In this document: piece by piece, positions 1 through 57,862 of the stretch
Position numbering within the stretch: the first letter of the stretch is position 1
How the letters are laid out: the number at the start of each line of letters is the position of its first letter
Assembly (NCBI GenBank): GCA_038227875.1
Contig: JBBRPR010000052.1
Coordinates: forward strand, 1-63,268
DNA: 63,268 nucleotides
DNA from: Planctomycetota bacterium
GTDB taxonomy: Bacteria; Planctomycetota; SZUA-567; H5-PLA8
Direction of reading: 5' to 3'
Notes under the pieces: generated by a model
The model's input: the letters and a program-made list of their open reading frames with translations, nothing else
Told to the model about the DNA's origin: nothing
Database searches by the model: none
Made by a program: the position numbers and the translations under genes

Positions 1-140
1 CGCCGCCCAGCACTGGAACCGACTGCAAGGCAGCGAATTGTTAGCGGACATCGTACAGGGCGTCCGCTTTGTGGACGGCATCAAGGAGAAAGTCGCGTGA
101 CTTTTCCTCCCGTCCAATCCACAAGATTTGACAATACCCC
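1..140 (+). mobile_element. Right end of an IS256-family insertion sequence
   Basis: Transposase-like C-terminus followed by an IR-like end CCACAAGATTTGACAATACCCC (119-140); composition switches from GC-rich to AT-rich shortly after 140. Confidence 0.75.
2..100 (+). CDS. IS256-family transposase, C-terminal fragment (5' part outside window)
   Basis: Manual translation AAQHWNRLQGSELLADIVQGVRFVDGIKEKVA* fits the W.RL.G..LL..V..G..F.DG end typical of IS256 transposases. Confidence 0.75.
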   Translation, partial: AAQHWNRLQGSELLADIVQGVRFVDGIKEKVA

Positions 141-351
141 GTAGCCGATGGTAATAAGTAAGGTCGTTAACCAACTTCCTGTTCTTCAAATGTCGCAGTA
201 CTTCAGTAGCAGTTTTTATTTCTAGTCCAAGAGAAAATGAAATAACCTCTAGAGTACAAGAATTATTGCATTCTATAAAAGCCAAAACAGCCTTTTCTTC
301 CATACTTAAATCTTTTCTTTGGAACACGTCACTGGAAAGAGTTGTTTTCAT
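141..351 (-). pseudogene. Winged-helix-like ORF interrupted by the IS
   Basis: Not in the ORF track. ATG at 351 gives MKTTLSSDVFQRKDLSMEEKAVLAFIECNNSCTLEVISFSLGLEIKTATEVLRHLKNRKLVNDLTYYHRL, which runs into the IS end with no stop. Confidence 0.55.
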
Positions 352-409
352 GATTAATTTCCTAAAAAGAGAGAAATGGTATATACGAATTGAGTAAAAT
401 TGAAAAGTC

Positions 410-640
410 TTATTGGTAGTCCCTCATTATGTACTCACTGAAGTATTTGTTTTCAGCCTGTTTATTTTTCCATCGCTTGGTAGTTTTCTTTATTGCTGGA
501 ACATGTTCGCCGATGCATTCCCTGATAAACTCGCTCCTACTCATGTTGTGACTCTTGGCTTCAGCGTCAAGAGCCTGTAGGAACTTATCGTCAACTTTCA
601 TCGTTAATAGTTTTTTCATTTTATCTCCCTTACACAGCAA
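410..640 (-). CDS. Ribbon-helix-helix (CopG-like) DNA-binding protein
   Basis: LLTMKVDDKFLQALDAEAKSHNMSRSEFIRECI is a classic RHH pattern; the real start is probably MKKLL at 619. Confidence 0.8.
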   Translation of the reverse strand: MLCKGDKMKKLLTMKVDDKFLQALDAEAKSHNMSRSEFIRECIGEHVPAIKKTTKRWKNKQAENKYFSEYIMRDYQ

Positions 641-676
641 ATGATTATAAGAAAATTATGAAACTGCTTATTTAGG

Positions 677-756
677 GTTAAAATCCTTTTGGGTGTAATA
701 TTGATAAGGTTCAGCCGTTAAAATCCTTTTTGGTGTAATATTGATAAGGTTCAGCC
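677..756. repeat. 40-bp tandem duplication (2 copies, 1 mismatch)
   Basis: GTTAAAATCCTTTT(G/T)GGTGTAATATTGATAAGGTTCAGCC at 677-716 and 717-756. Confidence 0.95.
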
Positions 757-1151
757 AATTTTTTATAAATATTCCAAAGCTCTTCCAGCAGAGCCTCAGC
801 AGCGGCCGGGTCAGCGAATGCAATGGGTTCTTCTGCATCACCATTGAACGTATGCTGGTAAGCATCTATTCCATAACCGAATCCTTCTATCCACTCCTCA
901 GAATCCTCATCAATTAGGTCCAAGTGATCGTAAAATGTGGTTGAATACGTGTTTTCGCTTATATGCCACGATTTGCCATAGATATAGGTAAACTCTACAT
1001 CAGGAAAGGTAGCTTTAATTAGTGTAACATCTTTTTCGTCGTTAAGGTTCATCTGCATTTCTCCTTGGTTTGAGTTAGTCGTTAAAATACGGGTCTTTCC
1101 CATTGTACATCTCAACTTCGTCTGCTGTAGGCGAATAACAGTTCTTACCAA
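711..1151 (-). CDS. Hypothetical acidic protein (real start probably near MQMNLN, ~1058)
   Basis: ORF track; an AAGGAG SD precedes the internal ATG. Confidence 0.6.
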   Translation of the reverse strand: MVRTVIRLQQTKLRCTMGKTRILTTNSNQGEMQMNLNDEKDVTLIKATFPDVEFTYIYGKSWHISENTYSTTFYDHLDLIDEDSEEWIEGFGYGIDAYQHTFNGDAEEPIAFADPAAAEALLEELWNIYKKLAEPYQYYTKKDFNG

Positions 1152-1410
1152 CCTCTAAATCCGTTTTAACTTTACGAACTGCTTTATCCTGTGTTAGGCC
1201 CCGCAGCATCCATCTACCACAGGAATTTGCTGATTTAATGTCACCCTCGAACTCTGTCAGCAGCTGATTGTAAACGTCTGCTCCAAGAGACATTTTAATA
1301 GCATCGCCTTGGAACCTGCTGTATTGATCTTTACCACCAACTTTAAGCATCGTGAAATCTTTAAACTTTAGCTGCGCATGCGTCTTAGAGTTAATAATAT
1401 TGATGCTCAT
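1075..1410 (-). CDS. Hypothetical protein
   Basis: ORF track; GGAG SD upstream; co-oriented with its neighbours. Confidence 0.6.
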   Translation of the reverse strand: MSINIINSKTHAQLKFKDFTMLKVGGKDQYSRFQGDAIKMSLGADVYNQLLTEFEGDIKSANSCGRWMLRGLTQDKAVRKVKTDLEVGKNCYSPTADEVEMYNGKDPYFND

Positions 1411-1488
1411 TGTCCTAGTGCTCCATCATAGTTTCAAAATAGAGCCTGATTAGTTCAGACTCTTGATAAAGTATAGTTTGTTTGCTTT

Positions 1489-2040
1489 TTAAATGCTGTA
1501 TTCCAGCACCATAGCAAGCTTAGCGTCTGCATAGCTCAAGTTGTTAGTCTTCGCAAAATCTCGTATTTCCTTAATCTTGACGTGACTCTGTTTTGCCCTT
1601 GCGGATTTAATTGGGTCAACAATCTTTTTAGGTGGAATTGGATGAGCTTCGAAAAATAGAGCGTGTTCTAATGCGTAATCATCACCCATATAGTAAGTGC
1701 TATCATAATCACAGCACTTAACGGATAATTGACCCTGTTCCAATATTTCAACATCACTATCAAAAAGCTTGCCCTTAATTGGTCCTCCTGCACAGGCAGC
1801 ATCATAAAAGGCTTGAACCTCATCGTCATCAGGTACAGTAATGTGAACCGTAGGAGCACCATCTTCTTCTAACTTTTGACCCGGTAAGAATACATATTCG
1901 TAATGCTTATAATTAGAAATTAGTCTTTTCCACCCTTCACGCTCTAGATAAGGGTAGGAACCCGTATTTAACCGGAAGACGTTTTCGCCGCATTTGTTCG
2001 ACCGACTCCAATATTCTAATTTCATTGTTAGGTGTATCAT
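1489..2040 (-). CDS. Hypothetical protein, paralog of 2104-2604
   Basis: Shares LPGQKL...APTVHITVPDDDE..AFY.AACAGGP and YALEHAL with the adjacent ORF. Confidence 0.75.
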   Translation of the reverse strand: MIHLTMKLEYWSRSNKCGENVFRLNTGSYPYLEREGWKRLISNYKHYEYVFLPGQKLEEDGAPTVHITVPDDDEVQAFYDAACAGGPIKGKLFDSDVEILEQGQLSVKCCDYDSTYYMGDDYALEHALFFEAHPIPPKKIVDPIKSARAKQSHVKIKEIRDFAKTNNLSYADAKLAMVLEYSI

Positions 2041-2103
2041 GTTCCTTACTCCCTTTTCTTTTCCTGCCCTTGGGAAACAGTCCTATAATGGTATCAGCCA
2101 CTA

Positions 2104-2604
2104 TCAGAGAATGTTTCCGTTTACATCCACGCTAATATTTAATATGCCTGAAGGAGGTTTAGGAGTGTTATCGATTTCCCTTTTCCAATAATTAGGTCCA
2201 GATGGATGTACCTCTTTATATAGAGCGTGTTCTAGTGCGTATTCATCGCCATTAAAATAATGTTTGCTGTAATCGGAGCAAAATACATGCATATTGCCTT
2301 CTTCATGAATGAGGGCACAACAATCACCTAGCTCACCTCTGTTTGGTCCTCCAGCACAGGCAGCATTATAAAAGGCTTTAGCTTCATCGTCATCAGGTAC
2401 AGTAATGTGAACCGTAGGAGCGTCGCCCTTAGCTAACTTTTGACCCGGTAGATAAATATTACAATAGTCATTTCCGGGATTAGTAGCAGCAACCCAACCT
2501 TTCCTGTTAGCGAATGGAACTGAAACGCTAGAAATCTTGAAACAATTCTCATTGTTAATGTTCGACCGTCCATAGTGGCTCAATTTCATTGTTATCTTTT
2601 TCAC
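2104..2604 (-). CDS. Hypothetical protein, paralog of 1489-2040
   Basis: Same conserved blocks; GGGAG SD upstream. Confidence 0.75.
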   Translation of the reverse strand: MKKITMKLSHYGRSNINNENCFKISSVSVPFANRKGWVAATNPGNDYCNIYLPGQKLAKGDAPTVHITVPDDDEAKAFYNAACAGGPNRGELGDCCALIHEEGNMHVFCSDYSKHYFNGDEYALEHALYKEVHPSGPNYWKREIDNTPKPPSGILNISVDVNGNIL

Positions 2605-3058
2605 TTTGTTTCTCCCTTTTTGTTGCCCTAGGTTTTTGTCTCAAGAGGTAAAATCCCCCAGCAGACTAGACCTATTGATTCTTATTAATTTGGCGGTTAA
2701 CTTTACTCGTAATTCTTAAAAATCTTGTAAACCGTATGCGGTATTGTCTTTAGTTGTGTTTTGGCTTAATAGGGTCTGTTCGCATATCCGTTTAGCCGCT
2801 AACTTTTCACACAATTCTTAAACAATTTTTAACTCCTTTCTCTTACAGCCTTTAGCTTATTCGGTGGCTTAATCACTCTTCCCATAAGTATTATCGTGAA
2901 AAACCTAAAAAATTCTAGAGCAATCCAAATCAATTAAAAGTTTTTTGGCTGTTTATTTAACTTCCTTCATTGCAACAACTTATATTTCGTGAACAATTTT
3001 ACTTTCATTATTTAAATGCCTATACTGCTATTTCACCCATTTAATTAGGAGAACAGAC

Positions 3059-3406
3059 ATGGCAAAGAAAAAAGCAGCAACAGCAGTAGCGCCAGATGCA
3101 GCAACGGAAACTCAGTCAGTACATAAGTTTAAGAGAGGCAGGATATCAGAGGTAGAGTTAACGCAGATGAAATCGGAATTAGCTGCCGGAAAAAATTACG
3201 AGCAACTGGAGACCGAATTTAACCGCCCGAAAACCACGATACAAGCTGCCTTGTCAGGTACGCCAAAGCAGAAGAAGGCAGCAGCACCAGCAGTATCAGG
3301 AACAGGAACAGGAACAGGAACAGGAACAGGTCTAGAGGCAGGTCTACGGCAGATGGTTCGTGAGGAAGTCAGGAACCAGCTAAAGCTGATTTTTAGCAAT
3401 CTTTAG
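3059..3406 (+). CDS. Small basic Lys/Ala-rich protein, possibly DNA-binding
   Basis: AGGAG SD; HTH-like middle segment; Gly-Thr linker encoded by (CAGGAA)5 at ~3297-3330. Confidence 0.7.
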   Translation: MAKKKAATAVAPDAATETQSVHKFKRGRISEVELTQMKSELAAGKNYEQLETEFNRPKTTIQAALSGTPKQKKAAAPAVSGTGTGTGTGTGLEAGLRQMVREEVRNQLKLIFSNL

Positions 3407-3816
3407 AGTAAGATTGCGTATTGCCCCATATCTTCTTAGCAGGGGAGAAACAGCTTTGTACTTTCGGCTAGTGGCGAATGCTACAGAGGGGTGTTTGTTG
3501 ATGTTTGGCTAAGCGTTCCTTGGCTATGAGACGACTAAAAAATTCAATTTCTCCTTCTGGTCTACATATCATGGATGCGTCAGCGAGAAATTTTCAAAAA
3601 TTCAGTTTTTGGATTGGCAGGGATTCGAACCCTAGAGAGCGTTGGGGGCTTGAAAAAATGAGACGGTAGCGGTATCGTCATCCGGGTTGGGGGCTTCGAC
3701 ATTTGGAAAATCGACCAGCCTATCAGATTACCCTATCAGATTAGGGTTGTGGGCGGTCGAGAAGTAAAGAGTTGGTGTTTTTATAAGTCAAACAACTGAA
3801 TAGATTTAAGCGAGAC

Positions 3817-3906
3817 GGAGAGGTGCCAGAGTGGTCGATTGGGCTTGTCTCGAAAACAAGTAGGCCAGCAATGGTCTCCAGGGTTCGAATCCCTGCCTCT
3901 CCGCCA
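3817..3906 (+). tRNA. tRNA-Ser(CGA)
   Basis: Acceptor GGAGAGG/CCTCTCC, anticodon arm CTTGT-CTCGAAA-ACAAG, long variable arm, T-loop TTCGAAT, encoded CCA. Confidence 0.97.
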
Positions 3907-3985
3907 GTTTCGTTCTATGAATGTCCAAGCACCGCTTGTGATCTTTAGATTACTTCTGCCGACGCTCGACTAAGCATTGCATTCA

Positions 3986-4540
3986 TCACCGCCCCATCCG
4001 CCGAATCGTGCTTCTTGCGACGATCGTCATGAAATGAAATGCCGCGCCGACGATACAACCGAGGAGCACCTCGCTGCCGCGATAGAATGCGACCATGTAA
4101 ATCGTTTCGTTCGCCGTTCCTGTCAGCAAGACAATGAGCGAGGTCCACATGCATACTCGCAGCGACGGAAATCTGAACGCGATCGCCGCGCAGATCGCCA
4201 CGGCCAGGGCGATTGCCGGCACCGGGCTGGCAGTGATGGGGGTAACGGCCAGATGTACCACCACCGCCGCTACTACTCCGCAGATCGTGCCGAGGATGCG
4301 CCCGCCGACTGAGGCGCGCGTTTCAAACATGCTGCCCTGAGACACAATGACCGATGTGACCGTAGCCCAGACCGGACGTGGCAAGCTCAGCGATGACGCC
4401 ACGAGATACGAGAATGTCGCTGCTCCCGAACAACGCACGACGAAGCCAACTTGGCGGAGGACTATTTTCCGAGTCAAGGTGGGTTGCTTATTGGAATGAG
4501 TGATTCGAAACCAACGGCGAAGGCTCGGCATATACGTCAT
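3986..4540 (-). CDS. FUSC/aromatic acid exporter-like membrane protein
   Basis: PVWATVTSVIVSQ...RILGTICG...RGSEVLLG pattern with several TM helices. Confidence 0.75.
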   Translation of the reverse strand: MTYMPSLRRWFRITHSNKQPTLTRKIVLRQVGFVVRCSGAATFSYLVASSLSLPRPVWATVTSVIVSQGSMFETRASVGGRILGTICGVVAAVVVHLAVTPITASPVPAIALAVAICAAIAFRFPSLRVCMWTSLIVLLTGTANETIYMVAFYRGSEVLLGCIVGAAFHFMTIVARSTIRRMGR

Positions 4541-40815: not shown

Positions 40816-41817
40816 TCACACTGCGGCAATATTGCCAACTTGACCAGTTGCCCAAGTGGCCCAAGCCATTTCGTCCTGGCAAACGCGTTTGGCCATGTTG
40901 AGGTAGTTGTTCGTAGTCGAGATGTTCGTGTGGCCGGCAGCATCCCTCACCCAAACGATGTCATTCTTTCCGCCGTCGAAATTCTTAAAGTACGTCATAC
41001 TGCAATAAAAGTGCCGGAGGGAGTGCGGCTTCATGCGCAGTCCTTCGGGCTGGATCTGGTGCAGGATTTTGCGGATGACCGAATCGGAAACCTTGAACAT
41101 AGGTTCCTCTTGATCACTGGGGTGCTCCTTCAGAAATGCTGAGAGCAAGGCTGCGCAATAGGGACTGATCGGAACTTGGCCGGCAATCTTGCCTTTGCAC
41201 GACATGGTTCTGTGTTCAACGAGGATGTGGGGACGAACGCCCAGATGCAGGTGCCGCGGCCGCAGTGTGAGTAACGCTTCAATTCGAAGTCCGCTTCCGG
41301 CCAGCGTTTCGATCAGGGTTTTGCGTACGTCCGTTGCCAGCGCGCGGGTATCTATAATCGGGCGCTCCAGCGCCTCGCGCATCTGGAGGAATTGATGTAC
41401 GGTCGGAACATCAGCGGGCTCTTGCCGCTTGATCTTGATGCGCATGGTTTCCGGGAAAGGATTGGTTGGCAGGAACTTGCAGTAAGTTGTGATGGTATAA
41501 AACCCACGGAGCGCGGTCGCTGCTACACCAATTCCACAAGGCTTGCGTCGGGTAGAAATCCATTCACGCCAGTCGAGAAACGTATCGCGCTCTACTGTTA
41601 GCAGCGTAAGTCCACGCGTTGCAAGCCATTTCTGAAACATCTTCAACTCGCCAAGGTAAGAGACGATCGATCGGTCCTGAAGTCCCCACGCATGCCGGAG
41701 CTCGCGTTCGAATCTGGTCAATGCTTCCGAGTCATCCACCACGGTCTCAATCCTTTCTGAAATGGATTCGCCATCATCAATTGCTGCCCATGGAGGCGAT
41801 GACATTGCTGATAGCAA
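40816..41817 (-). CDS. Tyrosine recombinase/integrase
   Basis: SGLRIEALL (R), K, HSLRH, GH.NISTT..Y; N-terminal core-binding-like domain. Confidence 0.92.
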   Translation of the reverse strand: MLSAMSSPPWAAIDDGESISERIETVVDDSEALTRFERELRHAWGLQDRSIVSYLGELKMFQKWLATRGLTLLTVERDTFLDWREWISTRRKPCGIGVAATALRGFYTITTYCKFLPTNPFPETMRIKIKRQEPADVPTVHQFLQMREALERPIIDTRALATDVRKTLIETLAGSGLRIEALLTLRPRHLHLGVRPHILVEHRTMSCKGKIAGQVPISPYCAALLSAFLKEHPSDQEEPMFKVSDSVIRKILHQIQPEGLRMKPHSLRHFYCSMTYFKNFDGGKNDIVWVRDAAGHTNISTTNNYLNMAKRVCQDEMAWATWATGQVGNIAAV

Positions 41818-41884: not shown

Positions 41885-44092
41885 TTATGAGATTGCGAAC
41901 AGCGTAGGATGGGACTCTTGAATCAAGTCGAAAAGGGAAAGTGCGATATTGGATTCTGGCTCGATTTTTTTGGTTTCAGCACCTACTACTGACCAAACTG
42001 CTCGGACGTCGATGAGTCGTTCCATTGAATGCGCCAACGTAGCCATGATGTCGTCGTTCTCGCCGCCGTTCATCATTGCCTTTAGAGCGCGGGTGTCGAA
42101 TGTGCCCTCCAATGCCTGGCTCGCCGCCTCTTTCTCCCCCATGAGACCGAGGGCCTTTTCCTGAATCGTTCCCTGATAGTAGAGGAAGAAGACTTTGCAC
42201 GGGAGCTTCTGAATCGGCCGGCGCGCTCGGGCGCTGGCCTGCCGCAGCACGTGCGTCGAGTAGCCCACCTGGTACCATATCAGGCTGGGAAACTGGACAA
42301 GGTCGAGCCCCGTCATGACACGCTTGGGGTTGGTGATCAGTACGTCCATCTCGCCGAGGTGATTGTTGATCCAGTCCTCGCGCGCGGCGGGCTGTACGTT
42401 GTCCGGCAACTCCACTGGCCGGAGCCCCGCCTGCTGGAGCGCGAGCACGATCTTCGGGCGGATGTTGTGCTTGCCGGTGTACTGCACGAAGATGCAGCAC
42501 TTGCGGCCCTGCGCGAGTTCCTCCTTGCAGATCTCGACGAGCTTCGCGTCCTTCGAATCCATCCGCATCGGCTCGAAGTTCTTCGGCTGGACCACAAACT
42601 CACTGCCGTTGCGCTTGCCGTTGTCGTCGAACGTTGGGCACATGACGGGATCCCAGCCCCACGGTTTGTCAATGTATTCGTCGAGCACCTGAATGCGGAT
42701 CGTGGAGAGGACCGGCGGACCCTTGCCGCCGTGGCTCCGTTCTTTGATCGCATCCTCAATCGCCGAGTCAACATGGCGATAGGCGATGCGCAACTCTTCC
42801 GACGGCTGGCACCCGATCAGTATGCGCTCGATCGTGGGCAGTTCCGGTCCGAGTTCGGCCAGCGACATGAAGACGGCGCGGCCGATCAGGAAGTGGTTGT
42901 AGAGATCGGGGGAGATGCCCGGGCGGGGGCGGCTGGTTGTCTTGTAGTCTTTTTTCCTGCCGCACGAACCGCGCTTCACGTAGCCGGAGTAGTCGTCGGC
43001 GACCCCGCGAACGATCTGCTTTTCGATCACGCCGTATCGATCGATGAAGCCGCGTTCGTTGCGGGCGATCGGACTGAGCCGGCCGTCACAGAGCGCCGAG
43101 AGATCGAAGCCGCGCTTGCGGAGAAGGTCTGCGCTCATGCGCCACAGCGGCGCGTGGAGATCGCGGGCGTGTCCGCCGATCAGCGTTCCCGTCAGTGCGA
43201 TCGTGTAGCGGCAAGCGCCCGCGAGTGTTCCAAAACAGTTCCCCTGAATGGTGTCCGACCCGGCCAGCTCGTGCACCTCATCGGCAATCAGGACGTCGAA
43301 CACCCCCTTCATCTTGCGCTGGATGTAGCGGTCGATGTGAGGGTTTTTGCGGAACCCGCGTGCGTTCGTCGAAAGTTTGTCGCCACACTCCACGCACTTC
43401 ATTGGCGAGTTGCCGAGAATGTACTCGTCGTAGCGGAGCATCGTCTTCTCGTCGCCGTCCAATTCGTACTGCAGCGCATTGCATTTCGGGCAGGCGGCGA
43501 TCGTGCGCACTATGTTCCCGCCGAAGTCATCTACGTCACTCACCCGGCGCTTGATCGCGCACGGCTTATCCACGTCGAACCCCAGCTTGGCCGTCTCCTT
43601 CGAGATCACGGCGACCGCGGGTCCCGCGTGTTTCGCGGCGGCGTCGCGCCAGGCGGTCAGTTCACCGAAGGAACGGATCACGCGGACCATCACGCCGGGG
43701 ATCGCCCACTCCACTTCGCGCCGCCACTTGCGGACGAGATGGCCCGGGCAGATCACGAGAGCGCGGAAGTCTTTCTTCTTTCGGAATAACACCCACGCCG
43801 CACCTAGTGCCATTACTGTCTTGCCGCTGCCGGGTTCTGCGATCAGCCAGGTGCGACCATAGTGCTTGAATCCCTCCAGCAGCGCCCCGACCTTTTCAAT
43901 CTGTGACGGAAAGAATGCAAACCGTGCGCCCGAGCGCTTGGTGCGATTACGCTCTATCGCAGATAGATCTGGAAGTAGAGTGACGCCCGGAATGAAGCGC
44001 GGCTTTAGCACGCGCTCGGCGGCCTCGCCCATGGACTTGCCGTACTTGGTAATGAGTTCGTTAAGATCAGAGGCTAAGGCAACCACGTTCAT
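41885..44092 (-). CDS. SF2 (SNF2-like) helicase
   Basis: EPGSGKT, DEVH, LTGT, TGLDL, QASARARR; two CxxC pairs. Confidence 0.88.
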   Translation of the reverse strand: MNVVALASDLNELITKYGKSMGEAAERVLKPRFIPGVTLLPDLSAIERNRTKRSGARFAFFPSQIEKVGALLEGFKHYGRTWLIAEPGSGKTVMALGAAWVLFRKKKDFRALVICPGHLVRKWRREVEWAIPGVMVRVIRSFGELTAWRDAAAKHAGPAVAVISKETAKLGFDVDKPCAIKRRVSDVDDFGGNIVRTIAACPKCNALQYELDGDEKTMLRYDEYILGNSPMKCVECGDKLSTNARGFRKNPHIDRYIQRKMKGVFDVLIADEVHELAGSDTIQGNCFGTLAGACRYTIALTGTLIGGHARDLHAPLWRMSADLLRKRGFDLSALCDGRLSPIARNERGFIDRYGVIEKQIVRGVADDYSGYVKRGSCGRKKDYKTTSRPRPGISPDLYNHFLIGRAVFMSLAELGPELPTIERILIGCQPSEELRIAYRHVDSAIEDAIKERSHGGKGPPVLSTIRIQVLDEYIDKPWGWDPVMCPTFDDNGKRNGSEFVVQPKNFEPMRMDSKDAKLVEICKEELAQGRKCCIFVQYTGKHNIRPKIVLALQQAGLRPVELPDNVQPAAREDWINNHLGEMDVLITNPKRVMTGLDLVQFPSLIWYQVGYSTHVLRQASARARRPIQKLPCKVFFLYYQGTIQEKALGLMGEKEAASQALEGTFDTRALKAMMNGGENDDIMATLAHSMERLIDVRAVWSVVGAETKKIEPESNIALSLFDLIQESHPTLFAIS

Positions 44093-45780: not shown

Positions 45781-46769
45781 GACGCCTCCGATTTGGCCTT
45801 GAACACCTCATGCATCGGCCCGATGTACTCCCAGACCATGAGGGCGCGGGCGTGGTTATTGCCGCGCGTGGATTTCTTGTGGGTTCCGGTGTTCTTCCAG
45901 TTCTTGCCCTTAAAGCAGCCGACGACCGCATTCCCGAGTTCGCGCGTGTCGCACCCGAGGCGGCGCAGTTCGGCGAACACGTCATCGCTATTGCAGTGGT
46001 GTTGCGGATGCTTGATGGCGAGTTCGATCGCGAGTCCCTTGGCGATCTTGAGGATGGCCTTCCGCTTCTCGGGATCGATCGGTGCGGCGATTCCCTTTTC
46101 CAGCTTGGCGAGGCGGGCCTTATACTCTTCGTTCTCCCGCTTCAACACGCTCATCGGGTGCTGGTCGCACTGTTCGATGTGTTCCTTTAGCGCGTCCGCC
46201 ATTGCGACCGGCGTCGTTTCTTTCGGGCCGTAGCGGTGGCCGCAGTACACGCAGTTGACGTACATTCCGGACTGGAGATCGGCAACCCAGGCCGTCAGTC
46301 TGGCGACTTCCACCTCGGCGGCGACGCGGAGCTCGTGGGGTGTCTTGCCGTCTTTGTTGCGTACGGTGACAGTGAAGCGCCTGCCGCTGGATTGCATGAC
46401 GACTTCGGACTCGGTATAGTTATTCGCCTTCTCGTTCATCTTGGCGAAGCTATCGACCATGATGAGCAGCAGGTGCTTGGCGAACGAGATGCTCACCTCC
46501 ATCTTGCCAGGCCGCACGTCCATGTAGTCGAGCTTTGGCTCGAACGGCGTGAGCTGGGCGACCCGCGCGGCGAGACGCGTAATGCCAGGCCCCACCAGAT
46601 TTGTGCCGTAGTGCTCGACCATCCAGTGCCACCACTTGTCGCCGAACGCCTTGACGAAGTGCTCCAAGTCGGCGCGCCATTTATCCGGATTGGACATGCC
46701 TGGCGGCGGGAGGAGGTGATCGATGACTGCTTGTAGTTCGGGTTTGATTTCGATCTCGTCCGTTTTCAT
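45765..46769 (-). CDS. Hypothetical phage-like protein with a CxxC...HxxxC zinc site
   Basis: CVYCGHRYGP...HIEQC; start overlaps the upstream stop (ATGA). Confidence 0.7.
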   Translation of the reverse strand: MKTDEIEIKPELQAVIDHLLPPPGMSNPDKWRADLEHFVKAFGDKWWHWMVEHYGTNLVGPGITRLAARVAQLTPFEPKLDYMDVRPGKMEVSISFAKHLLLIMVDSFAKMNEKANNYTESEVVMQSSGRRFTVTVRNKDGKTPHELRVAAEVEVARLTAWVADLQSGMYVNCVYCGHRYGPKETTPVAMADALKEHIEQCDQHPMSVLKRENEEYKARLAKLEKGIAAPIDPEKRKAILKIAKGLAIELAIKHPQHHCNSDDVFAELRRLGCDTRELGNAVVGCFKGKNWKNTGTHKKSTRGNNHARALMVWEYIGPMHEVFKAKSEASCNSN

Positions 46770-48843
46770 GCTGCGTTGGCCCTCGCCAGAACCTCTGCCA
46801 TTACCGGGGAGACAGAATTTCCGATGCGGGCGGTCTGGTTGGCTTTGGATCCGGTCAAAAAATACGAATCCGGAAAACCCTGAGCCCGAGCCAACTCGCG
46901 GGGTTCGAGCATGCGCATGCCGATGTCCACGATCTGGTAATCGACCTGATCAATTGTGACCAAGCCGAACCGAGCCTTGCCAACGATTGTCCGAAGCGGC
47001 TCGTCCAGCACTTGTCCGGCGTGCTCGCTGCCATAGTAAACCTGTAAAAACGCACGCACCTCGGCGATGTGATTGCCGCCCGATGTCACCGTGGGCATCG
47101 GCTGCTCTACCGACTGGCCATGCTGGCAGGTGCCGTACATCTTCGAGAGGAAGGAGGTGACTAGCGCGGTCTTGCGCTGGGCTGTCTGAGTCGGCGCTGG
47201 CTCACTGGGCTCCGATCCGATGCTCTCGCCGTTGTATTGAGACAGGAATGCCGTAGCGACTGCGGTGCCGCGCTTCGAGGTGATCGTCTGCAGCGGTTCC
47301 TTGACGTCCTGGCCCCGGAACTGATCGTAGGCGTGGTTGCATTTCACGAGGATCGGGGCGGCGATCGCGTGCTTGCCCGTCGCGACCACGGTTCCGAGCG
47401 GCTTCTCGACGTCAAGCGAGCGTGGCGCCTGACCATCTCGTTCGCCGTACCCGGTCTGCACCAGTACGGGGGTGACGAGCAGGTCTTCGTTCTTGCTGAC
47501 CACCGTACCCAGCGGGGACTCCAGCGAGCTACAGCGATCGCCGTTGCTTCCGGTCTGGCCGATGCGGGTCAGGTACGCGGTCGCCACGGCCTTGTCGTTC
47601 TTGGCGGTCACGGTGGAGAGCGGGGAGTCCACGGAGATCGGCGGGGTGCAGGCTTGACGTCCGCCCACTCCGGCGATCACTGCCGTTACCAGCGCGCGGC
47701 GGTCGTGCGGCATGCAGGCTCGGGCAGGTTTGTCAATCCCGGTCGGTCGACCAGAACCCTCTTGGCCACCGGCCCCAGCCAGGTAAGGGGCGAGGCGGGT
47801 GTGCACCACGCTATGATATGATCCTTCGCGGTGATGGTTCCGAGCGGCCGATCCGGTCCGTGGCCGTCGACGCCGGTGTAGTGCTTGGCGATGTGGACGG
47901 CGGCGAGATGCTTGGTCTTACCGGGCATGACAGTGTCGAGCGGGACGTCGACCGAGCGCGGTTCAATCGAACCCGTCGGGCCGCGCAACCCCACAATGAA
48001 TGGTCGTTGTGATTCAATCACGAACTTGCGCAGCCCGTTGGCGATGCGGCGCAACGTGTTCTCGGCGAGCGGCTTCTTGCGTTCGAAGATGGACGGGCAG
48101 GGGATCGACCAGTCGATGCACTGTGCCGCGGTGCGGTACGGCCGGCGTCCCTTGCCGTGCGTCGGTTCGGGCCAGACGATTTTCTTGCCGTCGTTGCGGG
48201 CGATGAGGAACAGGCGGCGGCGATTGGTCGGAGCACCGTAGTCGGCGGCGTTGAGTTCGCGCCACTGGACTTCGTAACCCAGTCCGCGCAGCCGTCCGAC
48301 CCAGCGCTTGAAGGTGATGCCCTTCTTCGTGGAGTCGGGGATCCAGACGGGCTCGCCGTCCTTGAAGACCGGGCGGCCGAAGTCGTCAGTCATCTGAATC
48401 ACTGGACCCCAGTCCTGAAACTCGCGGACGTTCTCCATAAGGATGAGCTTGGGGGCGACGCGCTTGGCCCATTTGATCACGACCCATGCCAGGCATCGGA
48501 TGTTTTTCTTGACCGGCGTCGCGCCCTTCGCTCTCGAAAACTGCGTGCAATCCGGACTCGCCCACATGACATCCACGGGCATGCCTTGCGTGACCTGCTC
48601 GGGCTCCACCTGCCACACCGACTCGCACAGATGGTGCGTGTTTGGGTGGTTCATGGCGTGCATCTCGATCGCATCGGTGTCATGGTTGATGGCGATATCA
48701 GGATCGCGCCCCAACGCACGGCGCAGGCCCAGCGAGGCGCCGCCGCCTCCGGCGAAGTTGTCGATGATCAGACCGGAGATCGGCTTTTTGCGGCGCGGTC
48801 GTATGATTTCTTGGAGAAGTTCAGGGGTTTCGCATGAGATCAT
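46766..48843 (-). pseudogene. C5 DNA cytosine methyltransferase split by a frameshift at ~47815
   Basis: The N-half has DNFAGGGG, SPDC, ENV, RRRLF; the C-half has RMLEPRELARAQGFP and IGNSV. Confidence 0.88.
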
Positions 48844-48869: not shown

Positions 48870-49565
48870 TTATTTCAGGCCGAATTCAAGCACGTGGTCA
48901 CTGACAATGCGGTCGAACAGGTCTTGGGCATCCGGGGCGAATATGTACGCTTTGGTTTCGTCGCCGATCCCCCACGTCTCGGCATCCATCAGGATCCCGG
49001 AACTCTTGATCGTGGGCATCATGGCTTCGCCCCAATGAACCATGGTCGGGCAGGTGCAGCGTTCGCGGATCTTGCGCCACAGCACGTCGTCGTTGTCGGC
49101 GATGATCAGGTCCGCATCCTTGGCCAGCGCGGCAACGTGGTGAATGGAACCGGAGTGCCAACCTTGAATAGCCATGCGGGTGTCGCGGATATGGAACCCG
49201 GTCGGGAGTTCGAGGTTCTTCCACTTCGGTCCGAAGATTTCACCGCGCGCTTCCCACGTTCGCTCCTTCGACTTGTCAACCAGCGCCGCCATGAACGCGT
49301 GGGCGGTAGCGTCCGATGAGCAGGTGATCTCGAAGTAGTAGAGCGAACCGTCGCTCGTGACCGCGGCGGTCAGGTTGGCGCGCAGATCGGCGAGCATCTT
49401 CTCCTCGCCGTACACCATGAGGTGGAGTTCGGGGAGAGGCGCGTCGTCGGGCTGCGTCTCCTGCTTAAGTGCTTCAGCGGCGAGATCGTCGGGCAATTCC
49501 TTCCCGCCTGTCACCTGAGCGTAGATGGTGGCAAGGCGGTCGGCCTGGGTGGCAGTGGCGCTCAC
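48870..49565 (-). CDS. Hypothetical protein translationally coupled to the MTase
   Basis: GTGA start/stop overlap with the upstream gene. Confidence 0.7.
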   Translation of the reverse strand: MSATATQADRLATIYAQVTGGKELPDDLAAEALKQETQPDDAPLPELHLMVYGEEKMLADLRANLTAAVTSDGSLYYFEITCSSDATAHAFMAALVDKSKERTWEARGEIFGPKWKNLELPTGFHIRDTRMAIQGWHSGSIHHVAALAKDADLIIADNDDVLWRKIRERCTCPTMVHWGEAMMPTIKSSGILMDAETWGIGDETKAYIFAPDAQDLFDRIVSDHVLEFGLK

Positions 49566-50665
49566 GCTTCGATCTCCTCCTCCTCGGCCTTGGTGTCGAT
49601 CACCATCTCTTCACCTTCGGCTGACGTGTACTCCTCGATGTCGCCGCTCTCACGGAGACAGCGGACGTTCATCACGTAGTTCGTTTTCCAGTGCTCGACG
49701 TCGGCTGTCTTGTCACCCATCGCGTTGAACCGTTCGGTGTTCTTGGTATTCAGGATCTTGGCTTCCAACGTGCCCTTCATCAGGAAGCGATCGTCGCCCT
49801 GTTCGATCACGCCGTCGCACAGTCCGCCGGCCAGAGCCAAAGCCAGATGGCCCTCGCGCAACGGGAGTAGCGGCGGTTCAACCTTCAGCGCCTCACCCAT
49901 CGCCTCGCGCAGCAGACAGCCGCGCAGCGGCGAGCGGGAGACGGCGTCTAGGATCACGTCCTTACTGAGCGCGATGCGGCGGACCTTCGGGATGTTCAGG
50001 CTGGGCGGGATTTCGATCTTGGGTTGCAGCCAGTCGTCGGGCAGGGCGGGCCAGGTCGTTGGCTTGGCCCAGTCCGGCATGGCGATCGAGCCCTTCGACT
50101 TGGCTCGTTCGCGCCGCTTGCCGACCAGCACAACCTGCTTGAACATCGCGTAGTCGGGCTCGGGGAAGTGATGGACGGAGAGTACTTCGTATTCCCGTTC
50201 GATCGCCAGCGCGATCCCGGCCTTGGCATCGCCGAGCACGTAGTCGGGAAGGATGAAGATCAGGATGCCGCCGCGGCGCGCCCATTCCTTGACTCGGTTG
50301 AAGAGCAGGAGTTCGAGACGACCCTGACCGCGCGTGCGGTCGTATGGCGGGTTGAACCAGATCAGCGGGAAGTCGCCCGTGATCCCCGTGTCTTCGATCG
50401 AAGCCCACAGGCAATCGCCGTTCGTCGGAGTGAACCGTTCCCGGGCGGTACGCGCGCGGCCCTGATCGGATTCGATCCCGAAGCAGCGCACGTCCCGCCC
50501 ACCCACTTCGTTCCGGAACTGTTCGAGCGCGGCGCCTTCACCACTTCCGGGATCGATGGTGCAGGTCACGTACTTGTCGGACGGCGTAAACATCTTGGCC
50601 AACGCGGACACGACACGCGGCGGTGTTGCAAAAAATCCTTGCTGTATGCGGCCAATTTCACGCAC
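49562..50665 (-). CDS. Amino (N6A/N4C) DNA methyltransferase-like protein, DUF6094-like
   Basis: GFFATP, DPGSGEG, GIE, NPPY, FKQVVLVG, PPLLPL..GHLAL; GTG start at 50665 with AGGAGG SD. Confidence 0.8.
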   Translation of the reverse strand: MREIGRIQQGFFATPPRVVSALAKMFTPSDKYVTCTIDPGSGEGAALEQFRNEVGGRDVRCFGIESDQGRARTARERFTPTNGDCLWASIEDTGITGDFPLIWFNPPYDRTRGQGRLELLLFNRVKEWARRGGILIFILPDYVLGDAKAGIALAIEREYEVLSVHHFPEPDYAMFKQVVLVGKRRERAKSKGSIAMPDWAKPTTWPALPDDWLQPKIEIPPSLNIPKVRRIALSKDVILDAVSRSPLRGCLLREAMGEALKVEPPLLPLREGHLALALAGGLCDGVIEQGDDRFLMKGTLEAKILNTKNTERFNAMGDKTADVEHWKTNYVMNVRCLRESGDIEEYTSAEGEEMVIDTKAEEEEIEA

Positions 50666-50831
50666 TGGTAGCCCTCCTGGCTGCGCGTTCACCACTGACT
50701 GGGAAGTTGAGAGAAGCGAATTCGCCGAAATTGGATCGCGCCGCTGCGAACGCACTCAGTGCCGCGACGTCCGTAGCGTCGACGACCGCCATCGTTTGTT
50801 TGTCGCAGCCATAAAGATGAATGCATTCCAT
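50658..50831 (-). pseudogene. Internally deleted HNH-AP2 remnant (57 aa)
   Basis: N- and C-termini resemble those of 44067-44606, but the core is missing. Confidence 0.55.
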
Positions 50832-50847
50832 TGCGTCTCTCCATGTA

Positions 50848-50925
50848 AGTAGCGCCCGGGATTCGAACCCGGTCAGTGGGACGGTTCCATGCCCGCCCAG
50901 CGTTTCGCCAGTACGCCCGCGCCAC
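50848..50925 (-). ncRNA. tRNA-like RNA with a non-canonical anticodon arm
   Basis: Acceptor GTGGCGC/GCGCTAC, D-stem GCGT/ACGC, T-arm CCGGG-TTCGAAT-CCCGG; 8-nt central loop; no encoded CCA. Confidence 0.7.
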
Positions 50926-50960
50926 AACCCGACGCAAGACGCGCCGGGTACTGAGCTATA

Positions 50961-51006
50961 GGTTTCGTTTAGAACTTGAGGATTTTTCAGGGAACTGTGC
51001 GGTTAA
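50961..51006 (-). promoter_or_regulatory. Element-specific bipartite motif, copy 1
   Basis: TTAACCGCACAGTT-N22-AAACGAAACC on the minus strand; recurs at 56612 and 57775. Confidence 0.65.
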
Positions 51007-51066
51007 GAATTCAGACGACTTTTTTGACAGCGCTTGTACAATTGCCATCACTATACGGGGATCGTT

Positions 51067-51978
51067 ATGAGCACATTGACGTTGGCGCAGACGCAAGCAC
51101 TTGTTGAGCTATCCAAACTTTTCTATACTTTTTTGCCAGGATCCGGCGCTATTTTTACTTGGCAAAATGTTGCCGAGAACAATAGCGTGGGATCTTTTTG
51201 GAGAGGCGGCAGTAAACAGCCGGCAATTACGCATCTAATGGAAGCTACCTACGAACATAGACCGGATCGTTTTTGCCCGCTAATAGTGATGGCCGTCCGA
51301 GAAGGAATGAAATACAGGAGCAAGAGAAACGAACCCGTTACACTCCAAGAGATCCAGCGCGTTAATGAACTTTTAAAGAAGCTTAAATTCCAAATACCCG
51401 ATTTGAACGATCCAGTCTTTCTTCGGGACCTACCGACCTCCGCCACCCCGACAGGCGCAACGAACACACCATCCAATGAAATCAAGCGAGCTGACATAGC
51501 TCGATTGCATGCGCAATTTCTTAACGTCCTTTCGATAGCGGATGCACGAGCGAGGGGATTTGCACTTGAGAAATTCCTGAACGATTTTTTTTCCGAACAC
51601 GGCATGAATCCCAAGGCCTCATTTAAGCTAGGTGGAGAGCAGATTGACGGATCCTTCACCTTGAACGGGGATGTTTACCTGTTGGAGGCACGGTGGCGAG
51701 AGGAGCCAGCCAACGCTGCCGATCTTATGGTTTTGCGCGGAAAGTCAGAGAAAAGTGAATGGACGCGAGGTTTATTTCTATCGATGAATGGGTTTTCGGC
51801 GCTCGCAATTGACTCTCTAAAAACTGGGAAGAAGGCCAATCTAATAGGCATCGACGGAGAGGATCTCATTCTCGTCCTAGAGCGTCGGTGGACACTTCAA
51901 GATGCAATTCTGGCCAAACTCAGACACACGGGCGAGACGGGAGAATTTTTCATCCGTCTCGCCGTCATTCCCAGATAG
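51067..51978 (+). CDS. Restriction-endonuclease-fold (Mrr-cat-like) protein
   Basis: RGFALEKFL, GEQIDG, YLLEARW, GLFLSMNGFS; lower GC and opposite strand to its neighbours. Confidence 0.8.
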   Translation: MSTLTLAQTQALVELSKLFYTFLPGSGAIFTWQNVAENNSVGSFWRGGSKQPAITHLMEATYEHRPDRFCPLIVMAVREGMKYRSKRNEPVTLQEIQRVNELLKKLKFQIPDLNDPVFLRDLPTSATPTGATNTPSNEIKRADIARLHAQFLNVLSIADARARGFALEKFLNDFFSEHGMNPKASFKLGGEQIDGSFTLNGDVYLLEARWREEPANAADLMVLRGKSEKSEWTRGLFLSMNGFSALAIDSLKTGKKANLIGIDGEDLILVLERRWTLQDAILAKLRHTGETGEFFIRLAVIPR

Positions 51979-51984
51979 GGCCGC

Positions 51985-52341
51985 TCAACGCACCTTTACT
52001 GAGTACTCTTCACCAACGGCCAGCACAGCCTTGAAGACCGGATTGCTGCGATAGTCGTCCTCATCCAAACCCAACTCAATCGCGATAATCCGATCAGCAT
52101 TGCCCGCCGGCTCCAACGCTTCAATCAGCGCCAGCGGGGCCAGAACTTCCGGGTGAGCGTCTTCTGGAAGCCCGTGGACGGCCTTCATCCGATTAATTAT
52201 ATCGTCACGCTGACCCGGGTACTTAAAGTGCGCGACCTTCATGTCTTCACTGCTCGTGCTGACGAACCATCCGTAATACTTGGATGGCTCATCGGGGTTG
52301 AAATGAATTGTTTCTTCCAAGTCATACACGTTGGTGGACAT
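51985..52341 (-). CDS. Hypothetical protein
   Basis: Start moved to MSTNVY, just after the stop at 52346. Confidence 0.6.
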   Translation of the reverse strand: MSTNVYDLEETIHFNPDEPSKYYGWFVSTSSEDMKVAHFKYPGQRDDIINRMKAVHGLPEDAHPEVLAPLALIEALEPAGNADRIIAIELGLDEDDYRSNPVFKAVLAVGEEYSVKVR

Positions 52342-56043: not shown

Positions 56044-56433
56044 TTACCCATTGGAGGCTACCGCCTCTCCGGCGCGCACGCGGCCCTCCTCCTGCAGCAC
56101 GTGGGCGATCGCTTTTAGATAGCGCTCGTCGGTCTTGATCTTGCTGGCCCAGAGTTCGAGGCGCTTGCGGTTGAAGCGCGGCGCGGGTTCGAGCATGTAG
56201 GCGATACCCTTGCCAATCACGCAGGAGTAGCAGCCGTCGCCCTTGTGAATCAGGCTGGCGACCAACTTGATGCAGCGCGGATTTTTGCCGCCGCTATACC
56301 AGTTGTGCCCGCCCTCGTCGTACGAGACACGCAGGCGGATGCAGGGCGTCCGGTCTTTATTCACGATGTCGCGGCGGTCGGCCTCGTTTTGCTCCACCGG
56401 AATGTCGGCGACATCGATCGATCGATCTGACAT
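56044..56433 (-). CDS. Hypothetical protein
   Basis: GGAGG SD; ORF track. Confidence 0.7.
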   Translation of the reverse strand: MSDRSIDVADIPVEQNEADRRDIVNKDRTPCIRLRVSYDEGGHNWYSGGKNPRCIKLVASLIHKGDGCYSCVIGKGIAYMLEPAPRFNRKRLELWASKIKTDERYLKAIAHVLQEEGRVRAGEAVASNG

Positions 56434-56611
56434 GGCTCGTCCTCCAAAGGGTTGCTGTTCGAATGAACAGACCGACGCGCTCGCCCTGTCGACAGGGGTC
56501 CCATTAGAGGGAGAGCGAGCGCGATAGGCGCGTCCACGCGGTAGCGGATTTCACATGATTCACCTCGCTAGAAGGAAAGTTGCTCGCTCAGCGAACGTTG
56601 ATCACTGATGA

Positions 56612-56657
56612 GGTTTCGTTTGGATCTTGAGTCGAATTGAAAAAACCGTGCGGTTAA
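56612..56657 (-). promoter_or_regulatory. Element-specific bipartite motif, copy 2
   Basis: TTAACCGCACGGTT-N22-AAACGAAACC with the same spacing as copy 1. Confidence 0.65.
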
Positions 56658-57070
56658 AGAAAAAGACCGGACCATTGCTGGTCCGGCCTGAGTCTCAGGT
56701 CGTAGGGAATGACATCTTAAAAGACAGCATGCCGTCGATCATGGGATCGAGTAGAGGGTTTATGGTTGCGTCTGTATGCGTCACGGCGCCCCGTTCTTGG
56801 CCGATCCCAATCGGCTGCATGCCATCTTTCATTTATAGTCGCGCCGTAGAGGGCAAGAAGGCGCGCCAGACAGCGGGAGCTGCCCAGCCAGAGCACGTAC
56901 CACGGTAAACACCAAGGCATGAAGTTTTTCCTCGTATCGTCCGGTTAACGCTCCGGTGCGCGTGCGAATGAATTTGTAGCTGCGCCCAGTTCGCAAAGGC
57001 GCGCGGTACTCAGGACAGTTGCGATCACGTTGGAATCCTCTGGTTGGAATTCATCCACTGCGTGGTTGAT

Positions 57071-57487: not shown

Positions 57488-57739
57488 TCACGCCTGCGCG
57501 CAAGCGGTGGAATTGGTATGGAGCGCGGACGGAATGCGGAAGCCATTGTTCACGCAGCGCTCGACGGCCTGATCGATCCACGTCTGCATGCCGGGTTCGT
57601 CGTGGCGCTTGGCGCAGTTGGCGGCCATCGCGACGGCGTCGGAAAGTTCGAGGTAGAGTCGGGCGATCGCTTCGTTCGTCTCGCGCCTGGCGCGGCGGAC
57701 GTAGCGGGAAGCGATGTGCGTCAGTTCGGCATGGTGCAT
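57488..57739 (-). CDS. Small hypothetical protein
   Basis: GGGAG SD; first gene after motif copy 3. Confidence 0.6.
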   Translation of the reverse strand: MHHAELTHIASRYVRRARRETNEAIARLYLELSDAVAMAANCAKRHDEPGMQTWIDQAVERCVNNGFRIPSALHTNSTACAQA

Positions 57740-57774: not shown

Positions 57775-57820
57775 AGATCGGTTTGAGGTGAATGGGCTGT
57801 TGAGAAAACTGTGCGGTTAA
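57775..57820 (-). promoter_or_regulatory. Element-specific bipartite motif, copy 3 (second half degenerate)
   Basis: TTAACCGCACAGTT-N22-AAACCGATCT. Confidence 0.55.
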
Positions 57821-57862
57821 GACTTAGTTTTCGTAAATACTACGCTTTATGCGCTGTTTCGA

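Follow-up and report, generated by a model that had tools for sequence, protein, structure and literature searches.

A transfer RNA (tRNA)-shaped sequence at the head of a protein-coding operon raises the question of what it is and why it is there. Such a sequence lies on the minus strand of contig JBBRPR010000052.1 from the Planctomycetota assembly GCA_038227875.1. The whole contig (C52 of the host assembly), 63,268 nucleotides (nt) long, was analysed and is referred to here as the window. The host assembly is 88% complete and consists of 176 contigs with a total of 9.3 Mb. The tRNA-like sequence descends from a real tRNA, beyond what chance would produce, and is an orphan within the genomes and scans covered. 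The best explanation, which has about an even chance of being right, is that it is a degenerate tRNA gene associated with mobile elements, placed in an operon leader where two modules meet and still a possible substrate for excision by RNase P and RNase Z.

Structure of the tRNA-like sequence

The cloverleaf was defined from its sequence and its minimum free energy (MFE) fold.

50848..50925, minus strand: tRNA-like cloverleaf, 78 nt including the discriminator U73

The 5′ end of the molecule is at 50925 and the 3′ end at 50848. The acceptor stem (GTGGCGC/GCGCTAC) is 7 bp long, and its single G.U pair is G3.U70, where U70 is sequence position 75. Positions 8 and 9 are G8 and G9. They are followed by a D-arm with the stem GCGT/ACGC and the loop ACTGGCGAA, which contains GG. 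T27 precedes the anticodon-arm stem (GGGCGG/CCGTCC), which has 6 bp including one G.U pair and carries the 8-nt loop GCATGGAA. The variable region is 6 nt long, and the T-arm is canonical (CCGGG-TTCGAAT-CCCGG), with a perfect GGTTCGAATCC T-loop. The discriminator U73 (T in the DNA) is followed by TAC, so that no CCA is encoded. All 22 of the 22 stem pairs are intact, and the MFE fold of the 78 nt is exactly this cloverleaf, with -36.4 kcal/mol and 0.30 of the ensemble. An earlier sequence-only reading of the window had listed the intact 7-bp acceptor, the D-arm GG, the perfect T-arm, G8, the 6-bp stem with an 8-nt loop and the missing CCA, and all of them are present on the minus strand. A contig of the probable source sequencing run covers 49697-52296 with zero differences, and a 163-nt contig from the metagenome of a different study is identical over 50874-51036. 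The locus is therefore a real sequence and no assembly artefact.

ARAGORN makes no call at the tRNA-like sequence, and the sole tRNA that it finds in the window is tRNA-Ser(cga) at 3817-3906. When the locus was scanned permissively against Rfam, the general tRNA model RF00005 (gathering score 29) had no match, and the models that did match were mascRNA (20.3 bits; gathering score 42.5) and tRNA-Sec (15.6 bits; gathering score 47). For comparison, RF00005 scores the neighbouring tRNA-Ser at 54.2 bits in a scan of 3400-4000. A whole-window Rfam scan at gathering thresholds listed 0 matches despite this tRNA-Ser, so a blank in that scan does not mean absence. Neither ARAGORN nor the Rfam tRNA model thus scores the sequence as a normal tRNA, which agrees with the sequence-only reading. 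The 7-bp acceptor, the D-arm with G18G19 and the T-arm with a GTTCRANYC loop are those of a canonical tRNA, whereas a 5-bp anticodon stem, a 7-nt loop with U33 and U8 are lacking; the 8-nt anticodon loop reads GCAUGGAA, without U33. Since the anticodon arm has been remodelled and has no U33, the sequence cannot decode normally. The proposal that the elbow is preserved while decoding features are lost therefore holds, the acceptor, T-arm and D-loop GG being intact.

Special tRNA classes were rejected in turn. A tRNA-Sec has a 13-bp acceptor plus T helix (8/5 or 9/4), a long variable arm and a UCA anticodon; the sequence studied here has helices of 7/5, a 6-nt variable region and no UCA, and it scores far below the gathering score of RF01852. 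A tRNA-Pyl is marked by a 6-bp anticodon stem, a variable loop of 3 nt, a small D-loop that lacks GG and the anticodon CUA. Of these, the sequence has only the 6-bp stem, since the D-loop has GG, the variable region has 6 nt and CUA is missing. An initiator tRNA is rejected because G1-C72 is paired, and membership of mascRNA (RF01684) on the score given above. Small open reading frames (ORFs) that overlap the cloverleaf had no family match better than E 0.18. The nearest tRNA is 47 kb away, and the sequence is solitary and outside any tRNA array.

The tRNA genes of the host genome show which of these deviations are unusual. An encoded CCA is absent from 54 of the 81 tRNAs called by ARAGORN (27 encode it), and by a rough position indexing G8 occurs in 13 and C33 in 4 of the 81. 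Because a missing CCA and G8 are frequent in this genome, neither signals mimicry here. Among the features that had been called non-canonical, the anticodon arm keeps that standing, while G8 and the missing CCA are ordinary. The only truly odd part of the molecule is the anticodon arm.

Descent from a tRNA gene

The fold energy is unremarkable for GC-rich DNA (z-score -1.72; 10 of 200 shuffles had a fold that was as good or better), and a whole-genome cloverleaf screen was therefore run. The 9.3 Mb were screened for a 5-bp T-stem with a TTCRANN loop and a 7-bp closing helix at tRNA spacing. Of the 87 matches, 57 are ARAGORN tRNAs and 30 are uncalled. Only two of the 30 uncalled matches fold as a cloverleaf with three hairpins, namely the tRNA-like sequence and one poor candidate on contig C3, which is 100 nt long and has a 17-nt 'D-loop' and poor geometry. 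The tRNA-like sequence is the only convincing uncalled cloverleaf in the genome.

Search for relatives

The tRNA-like sequence is single-copy in its own genome. Relatives were sought by BLAST in 60 related genomes and with R1, a covariance model of the tRNA-like sequence (self score 112.8 bits), in 150 related genomes; both counts include one unpublished genome, G017. None of the BLAST matches listed covers more than about 36 of the 78 nt, and 26 weaker matches exist beyond them. The best one listed is 24 nt of T-arm and acceptor in genome G008. R1 reached E <= 0.05 in 21 of the 150 genomes with a best score of 37.1 bits, and in a second, overlapping sample of 150 Planctomycetota genomes its best score was 33.7 bits. 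The ten top R1 loci that were checked are ordinary tRNAs, spread over six isotypes (Thr, Gln, Cys, Ser, Leu, and Ile), so that no ancestral isotype can be inferred. The closest sequence, at 37 bits, is a tRNA of a five-tRNA cluster in G008. It was rejected as the ancestor: it shares the acceptor and T-arm, but its pair 3:70 is C-G instead of G.U, and the likeness is within chance by estimate because that T-arm is common. The G008 locus has no proteins in common with the methyltransferase island described below.

Other collections were equally empty. A pattern scan of metagenome contigs gave one match (L026), which is not tRNA-like. A first pattern scan of viral contigs gave six matches and no homologue, four of the six being copies of one AT-rich sequence. 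Two viral matches were rejected individually: L029 looked like a piece of a long-arm tRNA, and L027 agrees with the tRNA-like sequence over the stretch between anticodon loop and T-loop (about 30 of 37 bases), but lies inside an ORF of 717 amino acids (aa) and was attributed to chance. A viral scan for the exact 3′ end had 0 matches, and one for the acceptor and D-arm had a single match in GC-rich coding DNA without a T-arm. BLAST found no match in phages and one 21-nt T-arm match (E 0.6) in plasmids. In the literature searched, no bacterial mobile-element tRNA-like sequence with a 6-bp stem and an 8-nt loop surfaced, which is not proof that none is in print.

Position in the operon leader

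The cloverleaf lies between a promoter-like motif and a methyltransferase gene, in the following arrangement.

50960..51007, minus strand: promoter-like motif copy 1 (CTTAACCGCACAG ... CTCAAGTTCTAAACGAAACCT), from the repeat family, 12-mer matches and a three-way alignment
50926..50959, minus strand: 34-nt spacer between motif copy 1 and the tRNA-like 5′ end, the 5′ leader if the motif is a promoter
50666..50847, minus strand: 182-nt leader from the tRNA-like 3′ end to the likely methyltransferase start
49562..50665, minus strand: DUF6094 methyltransferase, first operon gene (Pfam PF19587, E 5.6e-15; PADLOC mad2)
48870..49565, minus strand: p231, second module gene, 231 aa, of no known family (tblastn, 8 of 13 related loci and C120)
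41885..44092, minus strand: SNF2/ResIII-type helicase, last module gene (Pfam; PHROG 62; 54-64% identity in 6 related loci and C120)
40816..41817, minus strand: tyrosine recombinase/integrase at the far operon end (Pfam Phage_integrase; PHROG integrase)

The operon runs from 50665 down to 40816. All of its genes are on the minus strand and tightly packed, in the order DUF6094 methyltransferase, p231, two C5 cytosine methyltransferase pieces, two proteins of unknown family, an HNH/AP2 nuclease, the SNF2/ResIII helicase and the tyrosine integrase. The likely start of the methyltransferase is the GTG at 50665 after GGAGGG, because VREIGRIQQG here matches the MREIARVQQG start of its relatives; the listed ORF starts at 50755. 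The 182-nt leader holds the GGAGGG ribosome-binding site at 50672-50677 and two AUGGA words at 50840-50844 and 50827-50831. A terminator scan of 50500-51200 found no terminator-like site. The sequence-only reading had placed the cloverleaf at the head of the operon, and this is where it lies, on the same strand, below the motif and above GTG 50665. The short gap to motif copy 1 was also found, although it measures 34 nt by the motif boundary used here and not the 36 nt given before.

Two further copies of the motif occur in the window.

56611..56658, minus strand: promoter-like motif copy 2, upstream of ORF 56044-56433 (minus), from the repeat family and alignment
57809..57821, minus strand: promoter-like motif copy 3, CTTAACCGCACAG part only, from 12-mer matches and alignment

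The motif consists of CTTAACCGCACAG and, about 20 nt further on, CTCAAGnTCnAAACGAAACCT. It is always on the minus strand and heads three transcription units. Seventy nt after copy 3 come GAGGGAG and the start codon ATG of an ORF of 83 aa (57488-57739). The full motif was found nowhere else in the genome, where one exact 12-mer (C61) and scattered 12-mers with one mismatch all lack the second half. The motif may be a promoter or operator that only this element has.

Related methyltransferase modules

Methyltransferases with 40-52% identity were compared at 13 related loci (L013-L025), 12 of them in metagenome-assembled genomes (MAGs) labelled Planctomycetota and one in Terriglobales. Up to six module copies occur per MAG, and the host genome has two more (on contigs C120 and C126). 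The conserved core is a three-gene module of methyltransferase, p231 and helicase, while the cargo between these genes and the surroundings vary. The module could be either a mobile cassette or a defence/anti-defence cassette.

ARAGORN found no tRNA and R1 no tRNA-like sequence in any of the 13 related loci. The upstream DNA differs in all 10 of the related loci that include it, among which there are two near-identical pairs. The module copies on C120 and C126 are without the tRNA-like sequence and without the motif. The cloverleaf is present in 0 of the 12 related modules with upstream sequence (10 loci, C120 and C126), and so it does not belong to what is conserved in the methyltransferase operon. 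In L015, L016 and C126, the methyltransferase begins about 90-300 nt after what reads like unrelated coding DNA. This layout puts a module edge just upstream of the methyltransferase, where the tRNA-like sequence sits in the window.

The segment on the other side, at 51-58 kb, could not be traced elsewhere in phylum genomes, plasmids or phages by its 800-aa protein. This protein has a match in one of 400 other genomes of the phylum, only via a DUF2958-like C-terminal domain, and plasmid and phage proteins match it through the same domain only.

Proposed interpretation as a relic at a module junction

The tRNA-like sequence may be understood as a pseudo-tRNA that came from a real tRNA and is linked to mobile DNA. 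It would have kept the acceptor/T-arm helix and the D/T elbow, which are recognised by RNase P, RNase Z and the CCA-adding enzyme, and it would have lost normal decoding when the anticodon arm was remodelled to 6 bp and an 8-nt loop without U33. Two mobile modules probably meet at this point, the motif-marked segment (about 50.9-57.8 kb) and the methyltransferase-p231-helicase module (about 41.9-50.7 kb), and their juxtaposition would have placed the cloverleaf in the methyltransferase operon's 5′ leader. Should the motif be a promoter, as we infer, the cloverleaf would be transcribed together with the operon. The tRNA-processing enzymes of the host would then excise it, as in tRNA-mRNA co-transcripts, and the operon messenger RNA (mRNA) would acquire a processed 5′ end as a by-product and not as a conserved design. 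The host does encode RNase P RNA (268.2 bits), RNase Z (310.7 bits) and a CCA-adding-family enzyme (122.2 bits). The orphan status of the sequence and its absence from related operons favour a relic. A decayed tRNA had been the last of several roles suggested for it and is now the leading option, with the reservation that perfect stems do not suit a long neutral decay.

Several observations weigh against this interpretation. In a simulation that assumes a canonical ancestor, every pair was kept in 4.7% of copies with 5 random substitutions and in 1.4% with 7. Since 22 of 22 pairs are intact here, long neutral decay is unlikely, and the copy is either young or structurally constrained. The position is fixed, 34 nt below a motif shared by three units and on the operon strand, no terminator-like site intervenes, and the arrangement gives the impression of organisation and not of accident. 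No direct repeat of the att type marks the junction, and so the conservation seen in relatives is the only basis for placing a seam between two modules here. Finally, the MFE fold of a 306-nt context swaps the acceptor stem for long-range pairs, and that structure makes up 0.001 of the ensemble. If the relic interpretation is right, the sequence is one more tRNA pseudogene on mobile DNA, and it cautions that an intact-looking cloverleaf at an operon head need not be a conserved regulatory part.

Alternative explanations

The alternative that survives best is a selected tRNA mimic, whose elbow and acceptor/T helix the element would maintain on purpose; this alternative is tentative and, on balance, unlikely. 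In its variants, the mimic would be an RNase P/RNase Z signal that sets the 5′ end of the anti-restriction methyltransferase mRNA, a decoy for defences that sense tRNAs or cleave anticodons, or an AUGGA platform for a protein such as CsrA. This fits perfect stems with deviations confined to position 8 and the anticodon arm, the place 34 nt below the promoter-like motif on the operon strand with no terminator-like site between, and a host with RNase P RNA, RNase Z and a CCA-adding-family enzyme. AUGGA occurs once in the 8-nt loop and twice in the leader, three words within 64 nt (50827-50890, minus strand), and one leader copy can sit in a small hairpin loop. The genome encodes CsrA (79.5 bits, on C22), which we take to bind such words through a GGA-type motif. 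In the window AUGGA occurs 98 times on the two strands together (108 +/- 10 in shuffles), a background of roughly one word in 1.3 kb of each strand, but the cluster is a post-hoc observation of a 5-mer. Passages of PMC10264068 and PMC11555353 propose or show that phage tRNAs counter tRNA-targeting defences, which would give a decoy a precedent. In contrast, no homologue was found in any scan, which leaves no covariation and no sign of retention, and the cloverleaf is carried by none of the 12 related modules. The selected mimic favoured by the sequence-only reading thus gained nothing in support.

In its most elaborate form, this alternative is improbable. It would make the sequence a purpose-built mimic with a helix recognisable by RNase P and RNase Z, a G3.U70 acceptor of the alanine type and a 6-bp hairpin that presents AUGGA. 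The mimic would be cut out to act in trans as a decoy or sponge, and the cut would set the 5′ end of the operon mRNA. The targets of such a decoy or sponge would be anticodon nucleases, other tRNA-sensing defences, or a GGA-binding regulator such as CsrA. If the stems are under selection, the sequence would be a bacterial mobile-element tRNA mimic for mRNA processing or a decoy against tRNA-targeting immunity, which is an active topic now that phage tRNAs are linked to escape from such defences.

A second alternative treats the cloverleaf as an attachment site, and it is doubtful, with a small share of the probability. The integrase at 40816-41817 would have inserted a methyltransferase island of about 10 kb at the tRNA-like 3′ end, and the cloverleaf would be attL or attR. 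The tRNA-like 3′ end does face the island, with the tyrosine integrase closing the far end, and the methyltransferase is the first gene after apparently unrelated coding DNA in L015, L016 and C126. A 20-nt copy of the region from the T-loop to the 3′ end lies on C142, is identical at 19 of 20 positions and ends exactly at the tRNA 3′ end; other 3′-half tRNA fragments are present in the genome on C108 and C35. However, the C142 match has an E value of about 0.1, and next to it is a repeat that also occurs on C91 and C127. Direct repeats of the cloverleaf, whole or in part, were absent from the outer ends of the island, from the DNA past the integrase and from the rest of the window. The integrase is at the end far from the tRNA-like sequence and has no close homologue in five genomes that carry the module. 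Contigs aligned to the window gave no reliable empty-site junction, the joints found having short sides of 20-75 letters and 80% similarity.

A working non-canonical decoder is very unlikely. It would read four-base codons via the 8-nt loop or be a nuclease-resistant tRNA, perhaps charged with alanine through G3.U70. The G3.U70 pair is the identity rule for alanine-accepting tRNAs and tmRNA-like acceptors, and all three tRNA-Ala genes of the genome have it like the tRNA-like sequence, but they carry A73 where it has U73. The remaining molecule is intact, odd anticodon loops (C33) occur in the tRNA array of the genome, and the 8-nt loop matches known +1 frameshift suppressors described in passages of PMC4238358. 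However, there is no U33 before any possible anticodon, and no relatives were found. The sole split gene of the operon, the C5 methyltransferase, needs a -1 shift, and since four-base decoding shifts +1, it would not join the two pieces.

A chance cloverleaf in GC-rich DNA deserves almost no credence, for although the fold z-score is merely -1.72 and a T-arm-like hairpin and a 7-bp closing helix pair by chance at 29 further sites of the genome, the T-loop matches the consensus perfectly, the D-loop has GG, four helices stand in tRNA geometry, and the outcome of the cloverleaf screen, with two of the 30 uncalled matches folding and the second one badly, comes near to refuting it.

Comparison with known systems

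tRNA pseudogenes and fragments at the junctions of genomic islands arise by integration into tRNA genes. The sequence studied here resembles them in being derived from a tRNA, in no longer scoring as one, in lying at the edge of an island that bears an integrase and in belonging to a genome with tRNA fragments. It differs from them in being full-length, with all stems intact and no att direct repeat found.

The thrU-tyrU-glyT-thrT-tufB operon of E. coli gives a tRNA-mRNA co-transcript that is processed by RNase P and RNase Z. As in such co-transcripts, a tRNA-shaped unit here precedes protein genes of its own strand, and no terminator-like site separates them. The tRNAs of these co-transcripts are functional and conserved, whereas the cloverleaf of the window is non-canonical and absent from related operons.

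The mascRNA of MALAT1 (RF01684) is the best Rfam match. The two align in the acceptor and T-arm and have in common the idea of a mimic that RNase P and RNase Z cut. In contrast, mascRNA is a eukaryotic family, and the match is below the gathering score and covers a generic acceptor and T-arm only.

L-arrays are described in passages of Santamaria-Gomez et al. 2021 (PMC8421152) as long tRNA arrays that are horizontally transferred. The host genome and its relatives carry arrays of this kind, and their members lack CCA, show odd bases such as G8 or C33 and in some cases are missed by ARAGORN. The tRNA-like sequence is unlike them in being solitary, and 6-bp stems with 8-nt loops are absent from the array members. 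It resembles the G008 array tRNA only in a widespread T-arm and an acceptor rich in GC, which may be due to chance.

Phage and mobile-element tRNAs with anti-defence roles, as far as passages of PMC10264068 and PMC11555353 describe them, share an unusual anticodon loop and a setting in a mobile element, which here is rich in genes of the anti-restriction type. Those tRNAs are competent in decoding and have 7-nt loops, whereas the present sequence cannot be read as a normal decoder and is not known to have a nuclease partner. The +1 frameshift-suppressor tRNAs such as SufJ have 8-nt anticodon loops according to passages of PMC4238358, and the present sequence likewise has such a loop on an otherwise tRNA-like body. 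Unlike the suppressors of those passages, it has no U33, its stem has 6 bp, and no +1-frameshifted gene in its vicinity requires it.

Other features of the window and the genome

Divergent from the tRNA-like sequence, on the other side of motif copy 1, lies a gene of the restriction type.

51034..51978, plus strand: restriction-endonuclease-like gene with an Mrr_cat domain (Pfam PF04471, E 1.1e-5)

The C5 cytosine methyltransferase of the operon is split into two minus-strand pieces, one with the N-terminal motifs (47686-48843) and one with the C-terminal motifs (46766-47809), which overlap by 124 nt. The distance of 1034 nt between their starts leaves a remainder of 2 on division by 3 and puts the second piece in the -1 frame. 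The pair could reflect a frameshifted gene, a shift that is programmed, or an error of assembly.

Ordinary chromosomal genes, for example those for complex I subunits and histidine kinases, make up most of the window, between 4 and 40 kb. Positions 1-4000 have about 40% GC compared with about 60% for the rest, and this part ends at the tRNA-Ser(cga) gene. An inverted 18-nt copy of the T-arm and 3′ end of tRNA-Ser (AGGGTTCGAATCCCTGCC) lies at 3617-3640 (minus strand), about 200 nt before the gene, and it may be the footprint of a past integration or rearrangement.

The genome as a whole is rich in tRNA debris and mobile DNA. Contigs C108 (near 12889, minus) and C35 (near 83696, minus) carry apparent 3′ halves of tRNAs with a CAT anticodon, from the anticodon loop to the 3′ end. 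Matching 5′ halves were not seen, as is the case for the halves left by elements that integrate into tRNA genes. In this assembly, which is 88% complete, the ARAGORN calls include just two CAT tRNAs, and none is an obvious initiator. An array of 30 tRNA genes, most of which do not encode CCA, lies at C25:15900-21900 (locus L056); some of its members, such as L056:8806-8876, are missed by ARAGORN and found by R1. Odd anticodon loops such as C33 are present in this array, and none of its members has a 6-bp stem with an 8-nt loop. Similar tRNA clusters occur in relatives, with 16 genes in G001 and 5 in G008. ARAGORN also labels one gene as 'tRNA-Pyl' (C67:21469-21544, minus; CTA anticodon, amber-suppressor type) and two as 'tRNA-SeC' (C13:840-935 and C47:42458-42548; TCA anticodon).

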